Below are positions 12,285-58,703 of a stretch of 64,000 nt of DNA, in pieces (the stretch's first letter is position 1; each line of letters starts with the position of its first letter). The translations under genes were made by a program, and so were the position numbers. The DNA comes from a virus (taxonomy: Duplodnaviria > Heunggongvirae > Uroviricota > Caudoviricetes): IMG/VR virus record IMGVR_UViG_3300045988_010208; one strand, written 5' to 3'. The notes under the pieces are model-generated. The model was not told the DNA's origin. It worked only from the letters and a program-made list of their open reading frames with translations, and made no database searches.

Positions 12285-12644
12285 TTATGGGAACAGACAC
12301 TTAATGTCATCGTTTTTGAAAACAAAACTTGTGTAGTTATGACCATCAACATCCAGCCAAACAGCCTGAACATCTACACCATCAAGATTCTGGTAAAGCT
12401 CTTTGATGAAGTGGTCTTTTACAATCTGACTGCTAGTTGTTTCCAACTTAATGTTCGAGATTGCTGAACCTACAGCCATATAACCCATGACACGTTTCTT
12501 CTCAGTATGCTTAATCTTACCATCTTTGTAAGCCATAATGAGATTGGAAAGAATCTTTACACCATAATACTTTTCAAGGTGAGTAGGTACACCATAAAAG
12601 CCTAATGCGAAGTTTTCAGAGTGGATAATGTTTTCACGTTTCAT
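12285..12644 (-). CDS. hypothetical protein
   Basis: 119-aa ORF on the minus strand. Confidence 0.4.
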   Translation of the reverse strand: MKRENIIHSENFALGFYGVPTHLEKYYGVKILSNLIMAYKDGKIKHTEKKRVMGYMAVGSAISNIKLETTSSQIVKDHFIKELYQNLDGVDVQAVWLDVDGHNYTSFVFKNDDIKCLFP

Positions 12645-12645
12645 A

Positions 12646-12975
12646 TTAATCTGCCAACCTTAAATTGAAATTAACACCAAATTTTTCACATACTTCCAAC
12701 ATATACTCAAGGGAAACATTACCAGTGAGGTGGATTATGTTGGATACACGAGCCTGAGAGATACCACAAATTTTAGCAACTTGCTCTTGAGAAAGACCTC
12801 TTGATTTAATCTCTCTCTTAAAACGATGTGCAACGAAGTCTCTCATTTCGTCTACATCCATTGGACAAATATAACTCTCCATTTCAGCCTCTCTATCAGC
12901 CTCCCAATCATCTTGTGGGGCATAAGGGTCAAAAAACTCATTCATCTTTCTTCTTCCGTTTGCGTGAAGTGTCAA
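12646..12975 (-). CDS. HTH (XRE-family-like) DNA-binding protein
   Basis: 109 aa; helix-turn-helix signature GLSQEQVAKICGISQARVSNI. Confidence 0.55.
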   Translation of the reverse strand: MTLHANGRRKMNEFFDPYAPQDDWEADREAEMESYICPMDVDEMRDFVAHRFKREIKSRGLSQEQVAKICGISQARVSNIIHLTGNVSLEYMLEVCEKFGVNFNLRLAD

Positions 12976-13150
12976 TCAATGAATCTATGTTTGTAGCCCT
13001 AACCTTTTCACGTTCATCGTTAAGATAATCATCAAGAGCCTTTTCAATCTGTGAATCATCTTGACAGATAACTGTAAAGACTGTAAAGCCGTCTGTATCG
13101 TCAATTATCTTACCATAACCGCTTCTGGGATGTAACTTTTTAAGAGCCAT
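12938..13150 (-). CDS. hypothetical protein
   Basis: 70-aa ORF with Lys-rich C-terminus; 3' end overlaps the start of 12646-12975. Confidence 0.3.
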   Translation of the reverse strand: MALKKLHPRSGYGKIIDDTDGFTVFTVICQDDSQIEKALDDYLNDEREKVRATNIDSLIDTSRKRKKKDE

Positions 13151-13151
13151 A

Positions 13152-13535
13152 TCAAATACCTGTGCAGCTTCTGTTTTCTAAGAAATATTCAACACCGTAC
13201 ATAGCTTTTTGCATCAAATCTTCTTTAAACTGGATACGATGGTTGAGCATAGCCTGTACATCAATATCATCATGGTGCTTTTCTTTAATATTTGCAGATT
13301 GCAGGAAATACTCTGCAAGAACACGATATTGATAGTCAGTTACCTTATCAGTCATCTCTGTTAAAGACTCTTCAGAGATTGGTTTAAGTAGCTCACCATT
13401 CGCTAGAGCAACCCCTTTAACAATCTGGCAAGTGTCTTCTGGAACACCTGATAAATCCACATTTGGAAGTTCTGTTGCACTGACTGGTAAATTCATTGCC
13501 ATAACCATTGCAGCAGCTAATAAAATCTTTTTCAT
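13152..13535 (-). CDS. secreted/periplasmic protein
   Basis: 127 aa; N-terminus MKKILLAAAMVMAMNLPVSA|TE is a classical Sec signal peptide with AxA-like cleavage site. Confidence 0.5.
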   Translation of the reverse strand: MKKILLAAAMVMAMNLPVSATELPNVDLSGVPEDTCQIVKGVALANGELLKPISEESLTEMTDKVTDYQYRVLAEYFLQSANIKEKHHDDIDVQAMLNHRIQFKEDLMQKAMYGVEYFLENRSCTGI

Positions 13536-13715
13536 AATGACCTCAAAGTTATATTAAATTTTGTATTACATTGAGTATAAAAATAAGCTATAACACCTGA
13601 CTTGTCAACAGATTTTATAGCTTATTTGGCAGATTTTTTATAAGGCTACTGCCATCCTTCCATACATTACCTAACCAAGCCGAACATCACACAACCAGAC
13701 CGAGCCGCACCCCGC

Positions 13716-13794
13716 CTTATTAAAAGACCCTCTTTAAAGGCCTTTTAAAAAGGTGAGTCTCATTTTAATGTAGTTGAGACTAACTACCCACACC
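13716..13794. repeat. intergenic repeat module A, copy 1
   Basis: ~79 bp CTTATTAAAAGACCCTCTTTAAAGGCCTTTTAAAAAGGTGAGTCTCATTTTAATGTAGTTGAGACTAACTACCCACACC; about 90% identical to 15230-15308; contains inverted repeat GTCTCA..TGAGAC. Confidence 0.8.
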
Positions 13795-13845
13795 TTACCT
13801 CACCTGACCTGACCTGACCCTACCTAACATTACCGTGCCGCACCT

Positions 13846-13921
13846 CACTTAAAAACCTTCTTAGAAGACTCTTAAGTGATGTAATCGAATTTTAATGTAG
13901 CTCCGATTAACTACCCATACC
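13846..13921. repeat. intergenic repeat module B, copy 1
   Basis: CACTTAAAAACCTTCTTAGAAGACTCTTAAGTGATG... with inverted repeat CACTTAA/TTAAGTG; recurs at 15360-15395. Confidence 0.7.
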
Positions 13922-13965
13922 TGACCAAACCTTGCCAAACCTTACCTCACCCAACTACACCGAAC

Positions 13966-17964: not shown

Positions 17965-18015
17965 AAGCCCTCCTATATAAGATATAGTATAAGGTACTCT
18001 TCCATGAGCACCTTG

Positions 18016-18531
18016 TCAACTTAGTTTTGCAAACTCTCCGTGGAGTTTAATAGCAGCTTCACAGTAAGCTTTATGGGCTTCTTCTTCTGTTGTGTATGTC
18101 CCTATATGTATAGTCTTGCCATTATGGTTAATCTGGGCTATCCACTTACCAGACTTACTTCTACTTGTGCCTTTTAAGTTTTTTGATGTTCTAGGTTGTC
18201 TCCTATTAGACATGTTCTGTTCTTTTGTGGCCTCTCTTAGATTGTCCCAAGCGTTATTCAAACCATCTCCATCTTTGTGGTCAATGTGTTTATCAGGCCA
18301 CTTGCCTGTCATCCAGAACCAAGCAATTCGGTGATTGCCTGTCCTGTATCCTAAAATCTGTGTGTGCATATACACACCAGACCTTGTGCGCTTAATTGCT
18401 CCGGCTGGGCTTCCAATAACCACCCTACTACTGTGTGGAGGTCTGCCAATCCATGTTAAGACCCCTGTTTCGGGGTCATAATCTAACCAAGATTTTAACT
18501 GTTCATGTGTGAATCCACAATCTCTCATCAA
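18016..18531 (-). CDS. HNH homing endonuclease with AP2-like DNA-binding domain
   Basis: 171 aa; HNH motif HIDHKDGDGLNNAWDNLREATKEQN; C-terminal SGKWIAQINHNGKTIHIGTYTTEEEAHKAY resembles AP2 domain; start overlaps the DNA polymerase stop; paralogue of 28096-28620. Confidence 0.8.
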   Translation of the reverse strand: MMRDCGFTHEQLKSWLDYDPETGVLTWIGRPPHSSRVVIGSPAGAIKRTRSGVYMHTQILGYRTGNHRIAWFWMTGKWPDKHIDHKDGDGLNNAWDNLREATKEQNMSNRRQPRTSKNLKGTSRSKSGKWIAQINHNGKTIHIGTYTTEEEAHKAYCEAAIKLHGEFAKLS

Positions 18532-21257
18532 TGCACCTCATACCAGCTCTTACCAACCTTACCTGTGCCAGTTACAAGCGTCTCACTCTTCAAACCTAAA
18601 TTCTTAGATGCCTGACCATACATCCAGTCAGTTATGGCTTTAACTTCTTGAGTCATACTTTCTGGGCATTCCCAACTGTTTTCATCGTGGTATGCCAGCA
18701 AAAGCCTAGCACCGATTGCTGGTTTTCGTCCATTTAATTTTGTCAATCCTTCTTCACATGCTCTTCTACAAGCAAGGTTAATTGCCTCATTTTGAATCTG
18801 AGCCTCTGAACCCATGAGCAAATAATTCAATAACTTATGTGGAGATTTACACCACAACCAAGCTCCAGCAACCTTTACAAAACCCCCTTTAGAGATTGCA
18901 GCAGTCTTACCAAACACCTCTTCAAGTGCCTTTTTAGTTGCTTTGTAGTCAGCTTCCAAGTCATCTAGCAGCTTCTTAATTTTAGGCAAACGAATAAAGT
19001 AAGTCTGTTTAGTCAGCGCACCTTCCTGAGTAGTTGCAGCTTTAATCGTCTTAGCAAACTTCTCATCACCTGCACCGAACAGCAGTGCATAGATACCATT
19101 CTTAGCTTTCTTACGACCTTTGCTAATCTCATGAAGAAGATTCTCATCCTGAGTAGCTCGACAAGTCAAGATGTCCTGCTCATCATTCAAGCTAAAGTAA
19201 ATGCTATTCAGTGTATGCGCATCAGTCCCTGAATAGACAACGTACAGGTCATTCTCAGAGTCATAGCGAAGGTACTTATCAATTTCTGGGTTGAGGTACT
19301 CATCAAAGTGTTTGCAGTAATAGCGTCCATCTTCTTGACGAATAAACTCAATCTCTTCTTTACCTTGCGTTACCGCTTTGGTGAAGTCTTTATCACCCAT
19401 AAAGTTACAAAGCAGAACTAGCTGGGCTGAGTTCATATCTACAGAGACAACGTTAGTACCTTCCTCACAAATCCACACTGCCCTCATTGGTTCCCCATAG
19501 ACAGCAGCCCCAGACGGTACGTTTACAATACCATATTGTGTCATACGTCCAGTTGAAGTACCAAACACCATTGCACCAGCACTAAGGCGACCATCAGGAC
19601 GAATCTGGTTCAACCAACCTTTTTCATCATCCTTTGAGTTCTCAATAGTTCTGCGTCGGTGCATCAAAGTATAGTACTTAGCAATCTTCTGTCCAAGCTC
19701 ACCTTCAATCGTATCATAGGATGATTCGGTAAGTTTTGGTGAAGTACGGATTAAGCAAGGCTCAAGCAAATCTGTGTATTTCTTCACAGACCAGTTATGC
19801 TCAATGTACTGGACACCTTCATGTTCAACATAACTCAAACCACACCGCTCAACCATTTCCTGCCACTTAGGATGTTTTGTAATCATCTTTTTATTGTCTT
19901 TGAAACGACAAACTTTGACAGGACGACCATCTGAGTCTTTCTTGTAGTTCCAGTCATCTGGAATCCAACCAACTGATTTCAAGTAGTCTTTAACAACTGC
20001 TACCTGAGTCATACGAGAAACTTCAAACTCAATTGGTGTATACGGTGCATCAATCAAACCTGTGTAGCGACTTGACTCAAGTTCAAAGTGGTTAACAACG
20101 TGACTGTTATAGTACTTCACAGTTTTAACTGTTTTTACTGGCTTCCAGTCTTTGCATTTCTTACCAATCTTTGCGTTCAACTCATTGCAAATTGCACGAG
20201 CATCCTTCATTGCTACAAAGCCTTCCTTGTACTCTTCACCAGTTACAGTGTTGGTTGGTGTATAGCAATTTCTCTTTTCAATGTTAAAAATCTTTGTAGT
20301 TGGCTTACCAAATGGCTTGATTTCATATGTTTGCATCTCACCATTACGTACCTGCTGACGATACTTTGTCTTAGGGTACTTGGTAATTCTTTTCAGTCCA
20401 TCTGCATGACCAAATGTTTCAACATACTCATTCCAAGCTTTTGCAAACTCTTCTCCAGTGACTTTACCTTTGGTCTTAATAGTTGGAGGAAGATGTGGTT
20501 CAACCTCTGAAGCAAGCTCATTAGTCAACTTGTCAAGTTCCTTTACATGGAACTCCATAAGCTCTTTATCAGCTTTCCAACCATTAATAGCTTGTTGACT
20601 CATCCAGAAAGATGTTTCTTTAGCTCGCATGTAGGTTTCATAAGTGTCTATACCACACTTCTTAAGCTTGAGATACTCATTATCAAGTGCCCGTTTAGTT
20701 TTGGCGTTAATACGGATATCTTCTACAACACGAGTGAAGATTTCTGCATTCCACACACCCCAATGTTCAATCTCTGGTTTACGGACACCAACACGAGCAC
20801 CCCATGCAGCCAAGCCATGAGCACCTTTATAACCCTTTGGAGTTGGTCTATCCATCCACTGAACACGAGACTGGATAAGAGAGTCCTGAAAGAAATTACT
20901 CCACGGTTTACACTTTGGATTATCAAAGTTCCATAAATCAGGTGCAATGTGATTGAAAACCCACCAGTCATAACCGAGACCATTATGGATGCAAAGACGT
21001 TTTGCCTTTAACGCAAATTCAACACCTTCACGTAAACCACCTTTGATGTACTTAGTGTACTTGTGACCGAGGATAGGCTCATCTGTAAAGACCCATACAG
21101 GTGGCTCTTCATCGTCAGATTTATAGTCTGCGAAAGCCATTACGTGAACTTTAGTGAACTCAAGGAGTAAACCATCAGTTTCTGTATCACCAACCAAGTG
21201 TAAGTTTTTAAAATCTACGTTTTCCATTTTTACTCCCTCTAAAATCATTAACCTCAT
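18528..21257 (-). CDS. DNA polymerase, family A, with 3'-5' exonuclease domain
   Basis: 909 aa; exo motif VGDTETDG; Pol A motif B RKKAKNGIYALLFGAG; motif C LAYHDENSWE. Confidence 0.9.
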   Translation of the reverse strand: MRLMILEGVKMENVDFKNLHLVGDTETDGLLLEFTKVHVMAFADYKSDDEEPPVWVFTDEPILGHKYTKYIKGGLREGVEFALKAKRLCIHNGLGYDWWVFNHIAPDLWNFDNPKCKPWSNFFQDSLIQSRVQWMDRPTPKGYKGAHGLAAWGARVGVRKPEIEHWGVWNAEIFTRVVEDIRINAKTKRALDNEYLKLKKCGIDTYETYMRAKETSFWMSQQAINGWKADKELMEFHVKELDKLTNELASEVEPHLPPTIKTKGKVTGEEFAKAWNEYVETFGHADGLKRITKYPKTKYRQQVRNGEMQTYEIKPFGKPTTKIFNIEKRNCYTPTNTVTGEEYKEGFVAMKDARAICNELNAKIGKKCKDWKPVKTVKTVKYYNSHVVNHFELESSRYTGLIDAPYTPIEFEVSRMTQVAVVKDYLKSVGWIPDDWNYKKDSDGRPVKVCRFKDNKKMITKHPKWQEMVERCGLSYVEHEGVQYIEHNWSVKKYTDLLEPCLIRTSPKLTESSYDTIEGELGQKIAKYYTLMHRRRTIENSKDDEKGWLNQIRPDGRLSAGAMVFGTSTGRMTQYGIVNVPSGAAVYGEPMRAVWICEEGTNVVSVDMNSAQLVLLCNFMGDKDFTKAVTQGKEEIEFIRQEDGRYYCKHFDEYLNPEIDKYLRYDSENDLYVVYSGTDAHTLNSIYFSLNDEQDILTCRATQDENLLHEISKGRKKAKNGIYALLFGAGDEKFAKTIKAATTQEGALTKQTYFIRLPKIKKLLDDLEADYKATKKALEEVFGKTAAISKGGFVKVAGAWLWCKSPHKLLNYLLMGSEAQIQNEAINLACRRACEEGLTKLNGRKPAIGARLLLAYHDENSWECPESMTQEVKAITDWMYGQASKNLGLKSETLVTGTGKVGKSWYEVH

Positions 21258-21423
21258 ACATTACTGCAAAAAATTATAAAAAGCAAGTTGACAATGCACT
21301 TGACAAGGTGTTAATCTTTGCGAAGTGGGTTTTTACTTAAAAGGTTACTTAACAGTTTAACTATACAGATACTTTAAAACTCTTAAAAGATTATTTAATA
21401 GCTTTTAAAAAGCTTTAAAGTAT

Positions 21424-21440
21424 AACGTATAGAATACGTT
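21424..21440. promoter_or_regulatory. palindromic candidate operator in divergent intergenic region
   Basis: AACGTAT-AGA-ATACGTT inverted repeat in the 227-bp AT-rich region between DNA polymerase (-) and 21485 (+). Confidence 0.3.
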
Positions 21441-21484
21441 AAGATAAAAGATTAAAACTTAATAGTTACTTAAAAGAGGCTTAC

Positions 21485-21907
21485 ATGCAGAAAATGTTTG
21501 TTCACCCAGACATAGCTGACTTTGTTAGAGCTTTGCAGAAGTTGGAAGAACTTGACATTGCTGCTCAACGGGAATATGTTCACCATCACAGGAGAATGGT
21601 TGATATACAACATGAAATAGAGTTATCTGAAAACTATGAAGATGACTTAAAATGCTCTGTATTTGAGCATATGAAAGATGTTGCTACAGCGAGACGTAAA
21701 GCTAAAGACACAGTTGCTTTACTAGATTCTCTTAAAAAGAGGTTGCAAAGTGGTACAGACCTGTGTAATCTAGCGTCACTGATTAACGATGTTGAAACTT
21801 CTTGGGATAGGCACTATTATCCACGTTCTGAAAAGACACTTGACTTTTCTTCATCAGAAAACTTAAAATGTTCTAGAAAGAAGCTTAACCAACTGAGAGA
21901 GAAATAA
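21485..21907 (+). CDS. hypothetical protein
   Basis: 140-aa ORF, first gene of the plus-strand block. Confidence 0.4.
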   Translation: MQKMFVHPDIADFVRALQKLEELDIAAQREYVHHHRRMVDIQHEIELSENYEDDLKCSVFEHMKDVATARRKAKDTVALLDSLKKRLQSGTDLCNLASLINDVETSWDRHYYPRSEKTLDFSSSENLKCSRKKLNQLREK

Positions 21908-21908
21908 T

Positions 21909-22709
21909 ATGAATATCGATGTAGAAAAGATGCTTGAAGAAAAAGGTATTGACGAAGCGTTCTTAATCAATGCCGTAGAAAGCATGGCTATGATTCTTCG
22001 TGGCAACAACTACACAGAACAGTTTATGCCTGCAAGTTATAACTTGCCTGAAGACAAGTCTGATAACGGTGCTTTTGCAGAACAGGTCAACATGATGCTT
22101 TGCGACAAAACACTCGCTTTAGCATCTATCGTTGTAGGTGTTGATGCTCTTGCAGAGTTCATTTTTTATGAGATGCAGAAAAATGACTATATTGCCATGA
22201 CCACTGAAGAAAAAGACTTGCTACTACTCGCAGGTAATGATGAACTAATTGACCTGTTAATTTCATCAACAAGTGCTGTTATGGCTGCTCTTGAGAAGCG
22301 TATGGAAGAGAAACTTTCACGATATGAAAAACTTGATTGGGGCGTAGAAGAACTAAACCCACGAATCAAGGAGATTATCCAGCAAACTAAAGAGTCTTTG
22401 GAAGAAGCTGTTGAAAATGACTCTGTAGCTGATATAGAACCACTTCAGGTGAAAGTTGCACTGATGATTCCAGCTATCTCTACGATGATGAATATCGTTG
22501 CACTAATCCAGCTTTCACAGATGATGGGTGTGAGTATTGAGTTCATTGAGGAGATGACTGGCGGTGTCAGTATGCAAGCAATCAATGATGTTTTGGTGAA
22601 CATTGGTGCTTCAATCATTGAAGAGAAACTGCGCATTAACTTCGGTGATGATTTTGTGAAGCAAATCTCAGCTATGGCTGAAAAAGAGTCTGCTGAGCAA
22701 CTGCACTAA
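21909..22709 (+). CDS. hypothetical acidic protein
   Basis: 266-aa ORF; followed by a terminator-like hairpin. Confidence 0.4.
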   Translation: MNIDVEKMLEEKGIDEAFLINAVESMAMILRGNNYTEQFMPASYNLPEDKSDNGAFAEQVNMMLCDKTLALASIVVGVDALAEFIFYEMQKNDYIAMTTEEKDLLLLAGNDELIDLLISSTSAVMAALEKRMEEKLSRYEKLDWGVEELNPRIKEIIQQTKESLEEAVENDSVADIEPLQVKVALMIPAISTMMNIVALIQLSQMMGVSIEFIEEMTGGVSMQAINDVLVNIGASIIEEKLRINFGDDFVKQISAMAEKESAEQLH

Positions 22710-37613: not shown

Positions 37614-37777
37614 CCTTATGTAAAACTTGACAAGGTGGTGTGGGTCTTGATAGGCTTACATCACCTTTTTTATTGGATGTTAGATATGGCAGAGAGTATT
37701 ATTGGGTTGTTCATAGGTTCTGTCTTACTAGGGTTCTTTTTAGGACTCTCTTATTGTGAATTGAGAGATAAGTTAAA

Positions 37778-52683: not shown

Positions 52684-52941
52684 ATGGCTATTATCAAAAA
52701 CGTTGTAATTCCTGCAAAAACTCGTGATGACGCTCGCGTTATGGCTAAAAAGTTATGCGGGAAAGTGGTTGACAACGGAAAACAATCTAATGTAAGGTGG
52801 GGCGTGAAGGCTGATAAACATTTAACCTTAAAACGCAGTTCAAATAACCTTTTTAAAGGTGTAAAAACACTCGGTAAAGTGAACGTATTCACTAAACAAG
52901 GTTACAAAATGCACTTATCATTAACTGGCAATTTAACCTGA
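52684..52941 (+). CDS. hypothetical early protein
   Basis: ORF-track start at 52669 is a TTG codon; ATG at 52684 (MAIIKNVV..) has a GGAG RBS at correct spacing; 85 aa. Confidence 0.5.
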   Translation: MAIIKNVVIPAKTRDDARVMAKKLCGKVVDNGKQSNVRWGVKADKHLTLKRSSNNLFKGVKTLGKVNVFTKQGYKMHLSLTGNLT

Positions 52942-52949
52942 TAAAGTAC

Positions 52950-52985
52950 TTTACAAGGGGCTTAAAAGTTGATATCTTAAGCCCC
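52950..52985 (+). promoter_or_regulatory. type-2 stem-loop cassette (copy 2)
   Basis: TTTACA + hairpin GGGGCTTAA-N11-TTAAGCCCC + conserved leader up to ATG 53030. Confidence 0.55.
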
Positions 52986-53029
52986 AGATAAAGAGCTTTA
53001 CCACTAAATCCTAAACTGGAGATTCAAAA

Positions 53030-54344: not shown

Positions 54345-54548
54345 ATGGCTATTATTAACGGCTTACACATTGAAGCTACACACATCAAAGATATTAAAGT
54401 TGGTGATGTAGTTCTCTTTCACGGCGTAGAAAAAACCGTCACGGCGAAAGATATCAAAGAGGATTCTTTCATGGGTAGGACTCTTTTCGGTGATTCTTAT
54501 TGCTTAGGTTACCTTGCAGTTTTAAAAGTTGTCAAAATTAACAAATAA
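54345..54548 (+). CDS. hypothetical early protein
   Basis: 67-aa ORF, AGGAG RBS. Confidence 0.5.
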   Translation: MAIINGLHIEATHIKDIKVGDVVLFHGVEKTVTAKDIKEDSFMGRTLFGDSYCLGYLAVLKVVKINK

Positions 54549-54553
54549 AGTAC

Positions 54554-54589
54554 TTTACAAGGGGCTTAAAAGTTGTTACCTTAAGCCCC
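54554..54589 (+). promoter_or_regulatory. type-2 stem-loop cassette (copy 4)
   Basis: TTTACA + hairpin GGGGCTTAA-N11-TTAAGCCCC + leader to ATG 54635. Confidence 0.55.
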
Positions 54590-54634
54590 AGATAAAGAGC
54601 TTTACCACTAAATCCTAAACTGGAGATTCAAAAA

Positions 54635-55910: not shown

Positions 55911-56039
55911 TCAATAACTTATAAAAAACTTTTAAAAAAGTGTTGACAATACCTCTTGACATTGGTAACTTTGTTCGAGGGGGTTTATCTAAAAGGGATT
56001 CACTTAAAAGATTCTTTATAGATAAGCTTAAAAAATTGC

Positions 56040-56739: not shown

Positions 56740-56988
56740 ATGGCTACTATCCGCGCAACTGTTAACGAATTTGGCTTCTACTCTCTGGACGTTAAATTTG
56801 ACCTTGTAGGTACTGATAACGCCTTTGAAATGGTGAAAGGCCTTATCAGCCAGACCATCAGTGACTACAACCCCTCTGATGAATTCTGGAAAGAAACAAA
56901 ACAGGAAGCTCTCAAAGAGGGTTATACATACCACTACTGGGGTGAAAAAATTGTCTCCCTGTACTACGACAAAGAAGGCACTAACTAA
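56740..56988 (+). CDS. hypothetical early protein
   Basis: 82-aa ORF, last gene of the plus-strand array. Confidence 0.5.
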   Translation: MATIRATVNEFGFYSLDVKFDLVGTDNAFEMVKGLISQTISDYNPSDEFWKETKQEALKEGYTYHYWGEKIVSLYYDKEGTN

Positions 56989-57025
56989 ACGCCGCAACGG
57001 GGCTAAATAGCCCCAGATACCTTAA

Positions 57026-57051
57026 CAGCCCCGTTTAAGGGGCTTTTTTAC
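57026..57051 (+). terminator. intrinsic terminator ending the plus-strand array
   Basis: AGCCCC-GUUUAA-GGGGCU hairpin followed by UUUUUU; preceded by a cassette-like GGGGCT-AAAT-AGCCCC remnant (56999-57014). Confidence 0.65.
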
Positions 57052-58703
57052 GTCTATCAAATTCCTTTCCAGAATCTTAAAACCCACCTAACAAGTCAGA
57101 ACTTTACCACTGATTCGATAGAATCTATCCCAGACCTTAAAAAATAATAACTCTATAGTCTACTCTATAGCATTTTATCAAATCAACTTAAATATAAGCC
57201 CATAACCCGAAAGGGAAGGGCAACCCCTTAAACGCTCTATAAAGCTCTATAACAGCCTTATCAACCTAACTTAAGCAATCATATTAACCCACTCTAAAAA
57301 GCCCTTCCTAGAGCTTCCCAGAGCCTTAAAAGAATCTTATAAGGGTGTAAGCTTTATCATCTCGTTAGTATTCTTGTGAATATCTAAAAAGGACTTGTTA
57401 GTGTCTTAAAAGTATGTTATAGGGGCTTAAAAGTTACGTAAAAGTAGCTTAAAAGTTACGTAAATGCTAGCCCCCTTAACATTTTCTTAACAATTTCTTA
57501 ACAAACCCTACATAGTTATGCTTTTAAGGCACTTGTTAGCCCCTTGTTAAATCTCTGTTAAGACCACGTAAAAGCCTTGTAAGAGTCTTTGACATAGCCT
57601 TTAAAGCTCCTGTAAAGCCCTATAAAGAGGTGTCTGTATAGTTGGGGTGTAACTACTAGGAAGAGACTTAAAAGGGGCTATACAGAGCTTTTAAGAGGGC
57701 TATTTAGAGAATCACTAAGAGGAGAAGGGAACGATAAGAAAGAAGAGTTGTGTTTGTAAACAACCACTGTGACCATGTTAATAGCTTGTTAAAAAGATTA
57801 AACACTTGTTAGAAACTTGTTAATTATCTTAACAAAATAACTCTTTAAAATTAACTTGTTAGCTCTTGTTAGTCATCTGTTAAGATTCTGTAAAGCCTAT
57901 TCAGCACTTGTTAGGAAACTGTTACAGCCTTGTTAGTTCTGTTAAGAAACTGTTAAGACCTTTGAAGAGTTGTTAAGAAGATGTGAGAACTGTTAAGAGA
58001 TTGTTAAGGATATTTTAAAATTTTGCAAAGTACTTGTAAGGGAGCTGTTAAGGGCTACCAAGCAGATATACATCTTCTACAGATATTTTTGAGTTCCTTC
58101 AAAGACCCTAAAAAATGACTTGATAGTCCTATTTTATAAAAATTTTAAGATTTTGAATAATTACCTATACAGTCTTTTAAAAATACAGGTAGAAACAGGC
58201 TTATAAGATACCTTGTTAATACCGTGTTAGACCTTGTGAGATAAGGTCTGTAAAGATATTCCTGTTAAGTTTGTTAAAACAGTCTATATAGAGGTTTAGT
58301 AATACCTAGTGAACACCTATAGAGGGTATCATAGCTGACATAATGGGTTACTGTTAAGTAACACAGATAACCTAGAGATTAAGAGGTGTATAGGAGCTTC
58401 TAAGAGGGTGTAGAGGGATGATTAAGGTGATTGTATAGGTTGTTAAGAAGGCTTGTTAGAAGAGTGTTTAGAAGGCTTGTTAGAGGGCTAGTTAGAAGGG
58501 TTATACAGAGGGGCTATTAAGACCACTAGATAGTTACTAAGATACTATATAGTACTATATAACTATATAGAGAGTAAGATTAAGAAGGTTGTTAAGAAGG
58601 GTAGATATTTTATTCACATATGATGGTGACCCAGAGGTTGGGACAACCAATAAAATTTTATAAAAATTAAAAAGCCCCCAATTAAGGAGGCTCTTAAGAT
58701 ATT
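57052..58703. repeat. ORF-free region dense in short degenerate direct repeats
   Basis: About 1.65 kb with no ORF of 60 aa or more on either strand; roughly 35 copies of YTGTTARR (CTTGTTAG, CTGTTAAG, TTGTTAAG), many CTATAKAG-type copies, a 17-bp direct repeat CTTAAAAGTTACGTAAA x2 near 57428-57465, TATATAG clusters near 58540-58570. Confidence 0.8.

Follow-up and report, generated by a model that had tools for sequence, protein, structure and literature searches.

The subject of this report is the divergent intergenic region between the DNA polymerase gene and the rightward replication genes of a Felix O1-type phage, as found in IMG/VR virus record IMGVR_UViG_3300045988_010208, a stretch of 64,000 nucleotides from a member of the Caudoviricetes that is referred to throughout as the window. 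Felix O1 is a classic phage of Salmonella typing and biocontrol, and a 1.2-kb query around the region, which matched 258 phage records, showed it and its closest relatives to be 99.2-99.3% identical to the query, the window being 99% identical to Felix O1; a Felix O1 coordinate equals the window position plus 42244. In Felix O1 the region corresponds to the gap between open reading frame (ORF) 96, which encodes the DNA polymerase and is read leftward, and ORF97, to the right of which lie the genes for a dNMP kinase, a primase-helicase and an exonuclease. The gap holds a rightward promoter, here called P97, with a second promoter-like hexamer inside its spacer, followed by an AT-rich leader with short repeated boxes and two dyad symmetries.

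The left boundary of the gap is set by the start of the polymerase gene, which on the alignments is almost certainly the ATG at 21225-21227 on the minus strand and not the one at 21257. The gap was aligned for Felixounavirus, Suspvirus and Mooglevirus and then for 24 distinct versions including IMG/VR contigs, with a fourth lineage added later. The ATG at 21227 is kept in 24 of the 24 distinct aligned sequences and has been annotated as the gene start in both Suspvirus and Mooglevirus, it is preceded at a distance of 5 nt by an invariant Shine-Dalgarno sequence GAGGGAG (21233-21239, minus strand), and the protein sequence read from it, MENVDFKNLHLVGDTETDG, continues directly with the D-x-E motif of the exonuclease. 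Relatives do not keep the in-frame ATGs at 21248 and 21257; the Felix O1 polymerase coding sequence begins at the equivalent of 21248 in NC_005282 and in one coding sequence of AF320576, and at the equivalent of 21257 in a second coding sequence of AF320576. With the polymerase starting at 21227, the spacer therefore covers 21228-21484 and is 257 bp long, instead of the 227 bp of the original prediction.

Divergent promoters between genes 96 and 97 were already assumed by Whichard et al. 2010 (PMC3185647), who listed a promoter P41 elsewhere in the Felix O1 genome and found no homologous, sigma-70-like sequences in the 96/97 gap. According to the same genome paper, Felix O1 does not encode an RNA polymerase, and how its transcription is timed is not known; genes 96, 101 and 105 are transcribed within 5 minutes in the text of the paper, and its Table 3 puts genes 96-98 in the later-peaking set (PMC3185647). 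Later genome papers give automated promoter counts only, and a CRISPRi-ART study gives gene fitness for SUSP1 only. A literature search found no start-site mapping, transcriptome or origin study for the Felix O1-like phages or the Ounavirinae, and no paper containing the motif strings described below.

The region was scanned on both strands with a simple sigma-70 matrix that takes into account the two hexamers, their spacing and a bonus for an extended -10. P97 occupies positions 21288-21317 of the plus strand and consists of a -35 box TTGACA (21288-21293) that matches the consensus in 6 of 6 positions, an 18-nt spacer ending in TGt (21309-21311) and a -10 box TAATCT (21312-21317). Its score of 11.5 ranks 38th among the 639,720 scored positions of the window (top 0.006%), and the GenBank record MZ726792 carries a predicted promoter annotated at 21288-21315. 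The -35 box is invariant in the 24 distinct sequences, and the -10 box, preceded by TGt or TGg, retains T1, A2 and T6 as TAATCT, or as TAGTCT in Mooglevirus. An equivalent of P97 is the top plus-strand match in Felixounavirus, Suspvirus, Mooglevirus, Wc4-1 and Kolesnikvirus, and it is recognisable in Pectobacterium phage Wc4-1 (TTGACA-17-TAGGCT, score 14.0) and in Kolesnikvirus (TTGACA-17-TACATT, score 13.4) even where the remaining gap no longer aligns. Upstream lies an A-rich element at 21268-21287 of the plus strand, AAAAAATTATAAAAAGCAAG, of which the AAAAAGCAAG part is invariant. Felix O1 has about 18 predicted noncoding, sense-oriented promoters of sigma-70 type including P97, 15 of them with a perfect TTGACA, and many of these share the context AAAAAGnnG-TTGACA seen at P97. 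Transcription is predicted to start near 21324 (21323-21325) and would give a leader of about 160 nt. As far as comparison of sequences can take it, the assignment of P97 as a conserved, strong rightward promoter of host type is solid.

The conservation of the region is uneven. The third codon positions of the flanking genes are 0.54-0.68 identical between the window and the other genera, and the stretch 21241-21277 is similarly variable (0.53-0.68), whereas identity reaches 0.88-0.96 in the core at 21278-21334 and 0.82-0.85 in the leader at 21335-21470, the latter above the 0.68-0.76 found for gene 97. Because core and leader change far more slowly than the third codon positions of the flanking genes, the aligned sequences indicate that the 96/97 region is under purifying selection. 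Chance levels were obtained from dinucleotide-preserving shuffles of the region itself. The presence of at least two TTGACA hexamers has a probability of P=0.0013, but some 8-mer occurs at least three times with P=0.11 and a perfect inverted repeat with arms of at least 8 is found with P=0.18, so that only the TTGACA pair stands out alone, and the repeats and the palindrome need other evidence from conservation or genome-wide statistics.

The two TTGACA hexamers had been described as overlapping; both are indeed present, at 21288-21293 and 21300-21305, but they are tandem direct repeats 12 bp apart (TTGACAA-TGCA-CTTGACAAGGTG). The second box, CTTGACAAGGTG at 21299-21310 of the plus strand, lies within the P97 spacer and is invariant in the 24 distinct sequences, with one change in the fourth lineage (CTTGACAGGGTG). 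The 4-nt linker between the boxes (21295-21298), on the other hand, varies freely and reads TGCA, TGTA, TTCA, ATCA, ACTG, AGCA and others, and the pattern of two invariant boxes with a varying linker is the footprint of two separately recognised boxes. Since the matrix scan found no usable -10 after the second box at P97, it is not a second promoter. The same period-12 tandem is found at the promoter P41 in four lineages, even where the flanks of the boxes change. The string TTGACAAGGTG has three exact copies among the 109 TTGACA of Felix O1, with about 0.08 expected by our own estimate, which is not the result of a tool, and it forms the -35 box of two other predicted promoters, at window position 18020 on the minus strand (18009-18020) and at 37626 (37626-37637). 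Another promoter-like site with a TTGACA-N7-TTGACA tandem is located at 55943/55956 of the window (55943-55961).

A universal tandem-box promoter common to unrelated phages was considered and rejected: a pattern scan of IMG/VR gave 72 loci, and a control with other gap lengths gave 1-8 chance loci per gap length. The tandem boxes of a Clostridium-phage-like family (L015, L073) are coding sequence for the peptide VDKALDKV by our own reading-frame check, and several other matches are chance occurrences in GC-rich coding sequence. Promoter-like sites of the form TTGACAA-N2-4-CTTGACAAGGTG-TAnnnT occur once each in loci L034, L047, L057, L108, L110, L099, L106, L114, L116, L094, L096 and L044, which lie on unrelated contigs; L034 was checked and is T4-like, and the other eleven were assigned to its group because the sequence surrounding the site is similar. 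Among the unrelated contigs of the scan, only this set keeps such a promoter-like site. The L034 site is divergent from a homologue of gene 55 (late sigma), according to our reading of the upstream ORF, and antisense to the other predicted early promoters of its contig; no tRNA or Rfam RNA was found downstream of the tandem-box sites in the T4-like contigs.

Downstream of P97 the gap is, as originally described, AT-rich, with 79% A+T in 21330-21484 against 61% in the window, and the repeats noted there are present, CTTAAAAG at 21336, 21382 and 21469 and ACTTAAAAG at 21335 and 21468. They form part of a set of five plus-strand CTTAAnAG boxes at 21336, 21348, 21382, 21458 and 21469, of which only the middle one is invariant across genera. 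The first two, CTTAAAAG (21336-21343) and CTTAACAG (21348-21355), would span roughly +12 to +32 when counted from the predicted P97 start, and Mooglevirus has CTTAATAG in this stretch. The last two are CTTAATAG (21458-21465) and CTTAAAAG (21469-21476), the latter overlapping the Shine-Dalgarno sequence AAGAGG of gene 97 (21474-21479) and being degenerate in Mooglevirus and in lineage L141. The boxes are frequent well beyond the region: CTTAAAAG occurs 29 times in the window with 5.9 expected, 16 of its 29 copies in Felix O1 are located inside the noncoding 11% of the genome, and on noncoding sense strands it is found 15 times, against 2.0 expected, and once in reverse orientation. An unbiased ranking of 8-mers by enrichment on noncoding sense strands places CTAACAAG first, CTTAAAAG second, and the most frequent of the over-represented ones, and CTTAACAG fourth. 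In noncoding DNA, CTTAA[ACT]AG is sense-oriented in 26 cases and antisense in 4, compared to 17 and 17 in coding DNA (counted as CTTAA.AG). By these counts the boxes belong to a genome-wide family of oriented noncoding motifs, and their orientation rule fits a role at the RNA level or one that is directional in some other way.

Two dyad symmetries are found further into the leader. The one at 21400-21414 of the plus strand, AGCTTTTAAAAAGCT, has 7-bp arms and shows one-sided changes, which leave plus-strand G-U wobbles at two pairs in three sequences and break a third pair in two sequences. The palindrome AACGTAT-AGA-ATACGTT at 21424-21440, already proposed to be operator-like in the original prediction, extends to 8-bp arms at 21423-21441 (TAACGTAT-AGA-ATACGTTA, plus strand) with a -10-like TAGAAT (21430-21435) at its centre. 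Seven of its pairs are fully kept in 9 distinct sequences and two are changed on both sides, from A-T to T-A and from C-G to T-A; pairing of this kind with two double-sided changes was reached by 1 of 500 shuffles, and the fourth lineage has the same A-T to T-A swap and 8-bp arms. A search of noncoding DNA in the window and in Felix O1 1-45000 gave no other match with up to 4 mismatches. The symmetry is kept by compensatory changes, as would be expected of an operator and of an RNA hairpin alike. The distance from the strong promoter P97 to the palindrome is about 100 bp, and the only promoter element that the palindrome overlaps is the weak -10-like TAGAAT; it is possibly an operator and equally possibly a leader hairpin.

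The leader is also extreme in its physical properties. Positions 21329-21478 form the least stable 150-bp duplex, with a nearest-neighbour free energy of -161.2 kcal/mol, and rank 1 for duplex instability with 100- and 150-bp segments in the 64-kb window as well as in the complete Felix O1 genome of 86 kb. Frame-shifting indels between genera exclude that the leader encodes a small conserved ORF. No exact match was found for Fis, T4 late promoter, MotA box or T7 primase sites, which are met with one mismatch only, and consensus sites for CRP and FNR are absent even with one mismatch allowed.

The arrangement at P97 has a close parallel at P41 of Felix O1, in the divergent region between genes 40 and 41, which likewise lies at a point of divergent transcription. 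First, the tandem TTGACAA-N4/5-CTTGACAAGGTG is shared by P41 and there, too, precedes a -10 of the form TAnnnT. Next, the string ACTTAAAAGRYT is found about 12 nt into the predicted transcript, and ACTTAAAAGGTT lies 48-49 nt from the first TTGACA as at P97. Finally, the layout is completed by a dyad halfway along the leader and by a CTTAAAAG adjoining the ribosome-binding site, and the succession of tandem, ACTTAAAAGRYT, dyad and CTTAAAAG is found at P41 in four lineages. Unlike at P97, the spacer at P41 is 17 nt long and the leftward partner (TTGACT-17-TACCAT, score 11.6) is a good back-to-back promoter; the P41 dyad is of unrelated sequence (AGATATC...GATATCT), and the leader is shorter and less AT-rich. 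The gene 40/41 region itself (Felix O1 21416-21664, locus L012) has a mean column identity of 91% across four lineages, which is above that of the 96/97 gap, and its dyad AGATATC-TTTCTG-GATATCT is invariant.

The region had been proposed to be a bidirectional promoter, and of this proposal the rightward half is borne out by a strong sigma-70-type promoter kept in every lineage examined, whereas for the leftward half no canonical promoter was found and two weak candidates are left. No minus-strand site scoring at least 8 was found in 21228-22400, i.e. within 1.2 kb upstream of the polymerase gene, in agreement with Whichard et al. 2010, who found none either. The first candidate, P96a (21258-21286, minus strand), is back to back with P97 and consists of a -35 TTGCTT (21286-21281), a 17-nt spacer and a -10 TAATGT (21263-21258), with a score of 5.7. 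Its spacer is constant in length at 17 and variable in sequence, its -10 keeps TAnnGT in five versions (TAATGT, TAGGGT, TAGTGT and TAAGGT among them), and Wc4-1 (score 10.8) and Felix P40 (11.6) each have a good leftward promoter in the corresponding back-to-back position. The second candidate, P96b, lies on the minus strand within 21357-21389 and combines TTAAGA or TTTTAA, a spacer of 15-17 nt and TATAGT (21365-21360), with a score of 7.0-7.3 and a rank of about 600-730. It involves two invariant stretches, TTAACTATACAG (21357-21368) and CTTAAAAGA (21382-21390), and MZ726792 gives it as a promoter that has 3 mismatches. P96b would be oriented towards P97, and the two transcripts would overlap by about 30 nt. 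On sequence features P96a is weakly favoured, and the argument for it is weakened because its -35 box coincides with the P97 upstream element. Two further leftward candidates were rejected, namely a TATAAT at 21279-21274, a perfect hexamer in Felixounavirus that is not kept elsewhere and lacks a suitably spaced -35 box, and TTATCT-17-TATACT (score 7.9), whose -10 is lost in other genera.

Taken together, the region is probably an early divergent control region of a Felix O1-type phage, comprising P97, a weak leftward promoter and control sites in the leader. In such a model, host RNA polymerase with sigma-70 would recognise P97 through the TTGACA at 21288, the 18-nt spacer with the extended -10 TG and the TAATCT at 21312. 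The transcript would start near 21324 with a 160-nt untranslated leader and continue into gene 97 and the genes for the dNMP kinase, the primase-helicase and the exonuclease. The polymerase gene would be read leftward from a much weaker or factor-dependent promoter, for which TTGCTT-17-TAATGT is the likeliest, if weak, candidate. The second TTGACA box, the sense-oriented CTTAAnAG boxes and the two leader dyads are putative control sites, conserved and sharing their layout with P41, through which a phage-made factor would most likely time or limit early transcription, either at the DNA level in the manner of an operator or through the leader RNA.

Several points weigh against this model. The leftward promoter is not established, as both candidates score like hundreds of background sites, and the invariant AAGCAA that forms the -35 of P96a is equally explained as the upstream element of P97. 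The -10 hexamer of P97 itself matches only 3 of 6 consensus positions, and the literature holds no mapped transcript 5' ends for any Ounavirinae phage, so that all the promoters are predictions. The factor that would bind the second box, the CTTAAnAG boxes or the dyads is hypothetical, and one shared operator protein for the palindromes is disfavoured because the leader dyads of P97 and P41 are unrelated in sequence. Moreover, judged by the shuffles, it is not unusual for such AT-rich DNA to show 8-mer repetition or a palindrome as large.

The element as a whole is of an expected, ordinary kind, the early host-type promoter region of a lytic phage. New here are the well-supported promoter assignment, the paralogous two-copy cassette, the conserved TTGACA box within the spacer, the oriented CTTAAnAG family and the extreme instability of the duplex. 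Experimenters gain precise targets from it: an early promoter of the replication genes that is conserved, a control cassette present in two copies whose boxes are defined, and a testable origin candidate, all of which could help in the engineering of Felix O1-type phages.

Known counterparts of such a control region are PR/OR and PL/OL of phage lambda, promoters that have operator sequences inside them. Both systems have promoters with a -35 of TTGAC(A/T) for the host sigma-70 enzyme and a conserved element in the spacer, both have two genomic copies heading two early units, and both phages encode a helix-turn-helix (HTH) protein of the Xre/Cro type. In contrast to the lambda operators, the spacer element of P97 is a direct repeat of the -35 box and not a dyad, the palindrome is located about 100 bp downstream of the promoter and not over it, the relation of repressor to operator is putative, and the Felix O1-type phage is strictly lytic.

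Among the other explanations, the one that survives best attributes the conservation of the leader to its RNA, in which the CUUAAnAG boxes and the hairpins at 21400-21414 and 21423-21441 would form a cis-acting element similar to nut or put sites. Such a leader might bind a phage or host factor that controls the stability or processing of the mRNA, the translation of gene 97 or the read-through of terminators. The orientation bias of the boxes, strong in noncoding DNA and absent from coding DNA, is in line with this explanation, as are the positions of the boxes, since 5 of 5 here and 2 of 3 at P41 follow the predicted transcript starts in sense orientation and the last one adjoins the ribosome-binding site of gene 97 as well as that of gene 41. 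Pairing in the palindrome is preserved through compensatory changes, and the wobbles at two pairs of the second dyad would also be tolerated in RNA, although a third pair is broken. The early units of Felix O1 moreover hold many intrinsic terminators whose bypass is unexplained (PMC3185647). On the other hand, the leader does not fold significantly better than its shuffles (z = -1.8), the consensus fold has only a small covariation term (-0.81), and the first and last boxes are degenerate in Mooglevirus. A search of Rfam 15 gave nothing at or near the gathering score in 20500-22500, scanned at a permissive E-value, or in the whole window, and nothing relevant in seven related loci, which like the window were scanned at gathering scores. 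The parallel with lambda nut sites and ribosomal boxA leaders is likewise partial: here, too, a short linear motif and hairpins are present in the leaders of the two main early units, and CTCTTAAAAG resembles the boxA of lambda nutL (CGCTCTTAAAAA), but the boxA or nutL consensus (GCTCTTTAACAA or CGCTCTTA...) is matched at best by AACTCTTAAAAG with 3 mismatches of 12, its GCT part varies between genera, and no N-like or Q-like protein is identified. Finally, orientation by transcription is inseparable from orientation by replication in this genome. An RNA function of the leader seems possible but rather unlikely.

A somewhat less likely explanation, which gives the original proposal a specific form, makes the palindrome an operator to which a phage repressor would bind. 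This repressor, perhaps the HTH protein encoded at 12646-12975, would block a proximal promoter with the -10 TAGAAT (21430-21435) and thereby switch the replication genes. The perfect 8-bp arms and the symmetric changes that keep the symmetry in other genera agree with a dimeric type of site, the central hexamer is conserved as TAGAAT or TAACAT, and as the -10 of a second promoter it reaches a score of 10.3 in Wc4-1. The proximal promoter is weak here, however, with a score of 6.2, no second related site is present in the window or in Felix O1 1-45000, the leader dyad of P41 is of unrelated sequence, and 18% of shuffles contain a palindrome as large by chance. The link to the protein at 12646-12975, which had been suggested as the binding partner, is plausible in kind only, because the protein is of the Xre/Cro type (HTH_3), the kind that binds such dyads. 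The original prediction as a whole described a real feature, with two corrections, and its interpretation is partly supported.

A further explanation holds that the region is also, or mainly, a transcription-activated replication origin, in which P97 would fire into easily melted DNA and the transcript or the opening would prime or load the T7-like polymerase and primase-helicase. The cassette of promoter and leader would then be the origin of the phage, or one of two, with the tandem TTGACA and the CTTAAnAG boxes coupling early transcription to the start of replication; such an origin would be the first to be defined in the Ounavirinae, and it would correspond to the primary origin of T7 but depend on the host polymerase. 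The primary origin of T7 consists of the promoters 1.1A/1.1B and an AT-rich stretch, and oriF and oriG of T4 of a promoter with a downstream unwinding element and an R-loop. The 96/97 region resembles them in having a promoter that fires into the least stable, most AT-rich DNA among replication genes, and it resembles T7 further in that T7-like polymerase, primase-helicase and exonuclease genes adjoin it. It differs in that P97 is of host type and does not serve a phage RNA polymerase. An origin is worth testing because the least stable duplex of the genome directly follows a strong promoter and the replication genes nearby are T7-like by annotation; the duplex also lies between the polymerase gene and the primase-helicase block, the cumulative GC skew has its minimum here, and no origin has been described in the literature for this phage group. 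Nevertheless, an unwinding element needs richness in A+T and not the base-by-base conservation that is observed, and the turn of the GC skew coincides with a switch in gene orientation, a similar switch being found at genes 40/41. DnaA and IHF consensus sites are absent even with one mismatch allowed, there are no iterons besides the CTTAAnAG boxes, and an equally good or better candidate exists elsewhere in the genome. The origin explanation is accordingly judged quite improbable at present.

That other candidate is an ORF-free, repeat-packed region of 1.6 kb at about 56980-58600 of the window (Felix O1 12306-13927), located between two convergent transcription units and containing the second- and third-least-stable duplexes of the genome. 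Its left half carries CTTAAAAG on the plus strand and its right half CTGTTAAG, CTTGTTAG and TTGTTAAG, and CTCTATAAC and TTCTTAACAA are also present; read on the minus strand, CTGTTAAG and CTTGTTAG correspond to CTTAACAG and CTAACAAG, respectively. It is a candidate for an origin, a packaging region or a noncoding-RNA region.

That the region holds nothing special beyond one promoter, the rest being AT-rich filler that seems conserved through the close kinship of the compared phages, is the least probable explanation and very doubtful, for while most available genomes are at least 95% identical and repeats and palindromes of such size are common in AT-rich shuffles, the same genome pairs fall to 0.53-0.68 at third codon positions and in 21241-21277 where leader and core stay high, and the layout is duplicated at P41 and better conserved there.

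The model of an early divergent control region leaves the genes it would serve in the following state. Gene 97 (21485-21907, plus strand), the first gene of the rightward block, encodes a protein of 140 aa that is conserved across the Ounavirinae, has no Pfam match and belongs to PHROG 4039, which is of unknown function; a single-sequence structure model of gp97, considered as a possible regulator, is all-helical and of low confidence, with a mean pLDDT (predicted local distance difference test) of 63. Many records, as well as PHROG 4251, call gene 98 (21909-22709), which sits directly after gene 97, a 'minor tail protein'; because it is located inside the early replication block, this looks like a propagated name of doubtful value. 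Elsewhere in the window, two near-identical repeats of about 60 nt are located between small early genes at 52940-53020 and 54545-54625, each containing a hairpin GGGGCTTAAAAGTTG.TA.CTTAAGCCCC followed by AGATAAAGAGCTTTACCACTAAATCCTAAACTGGA.

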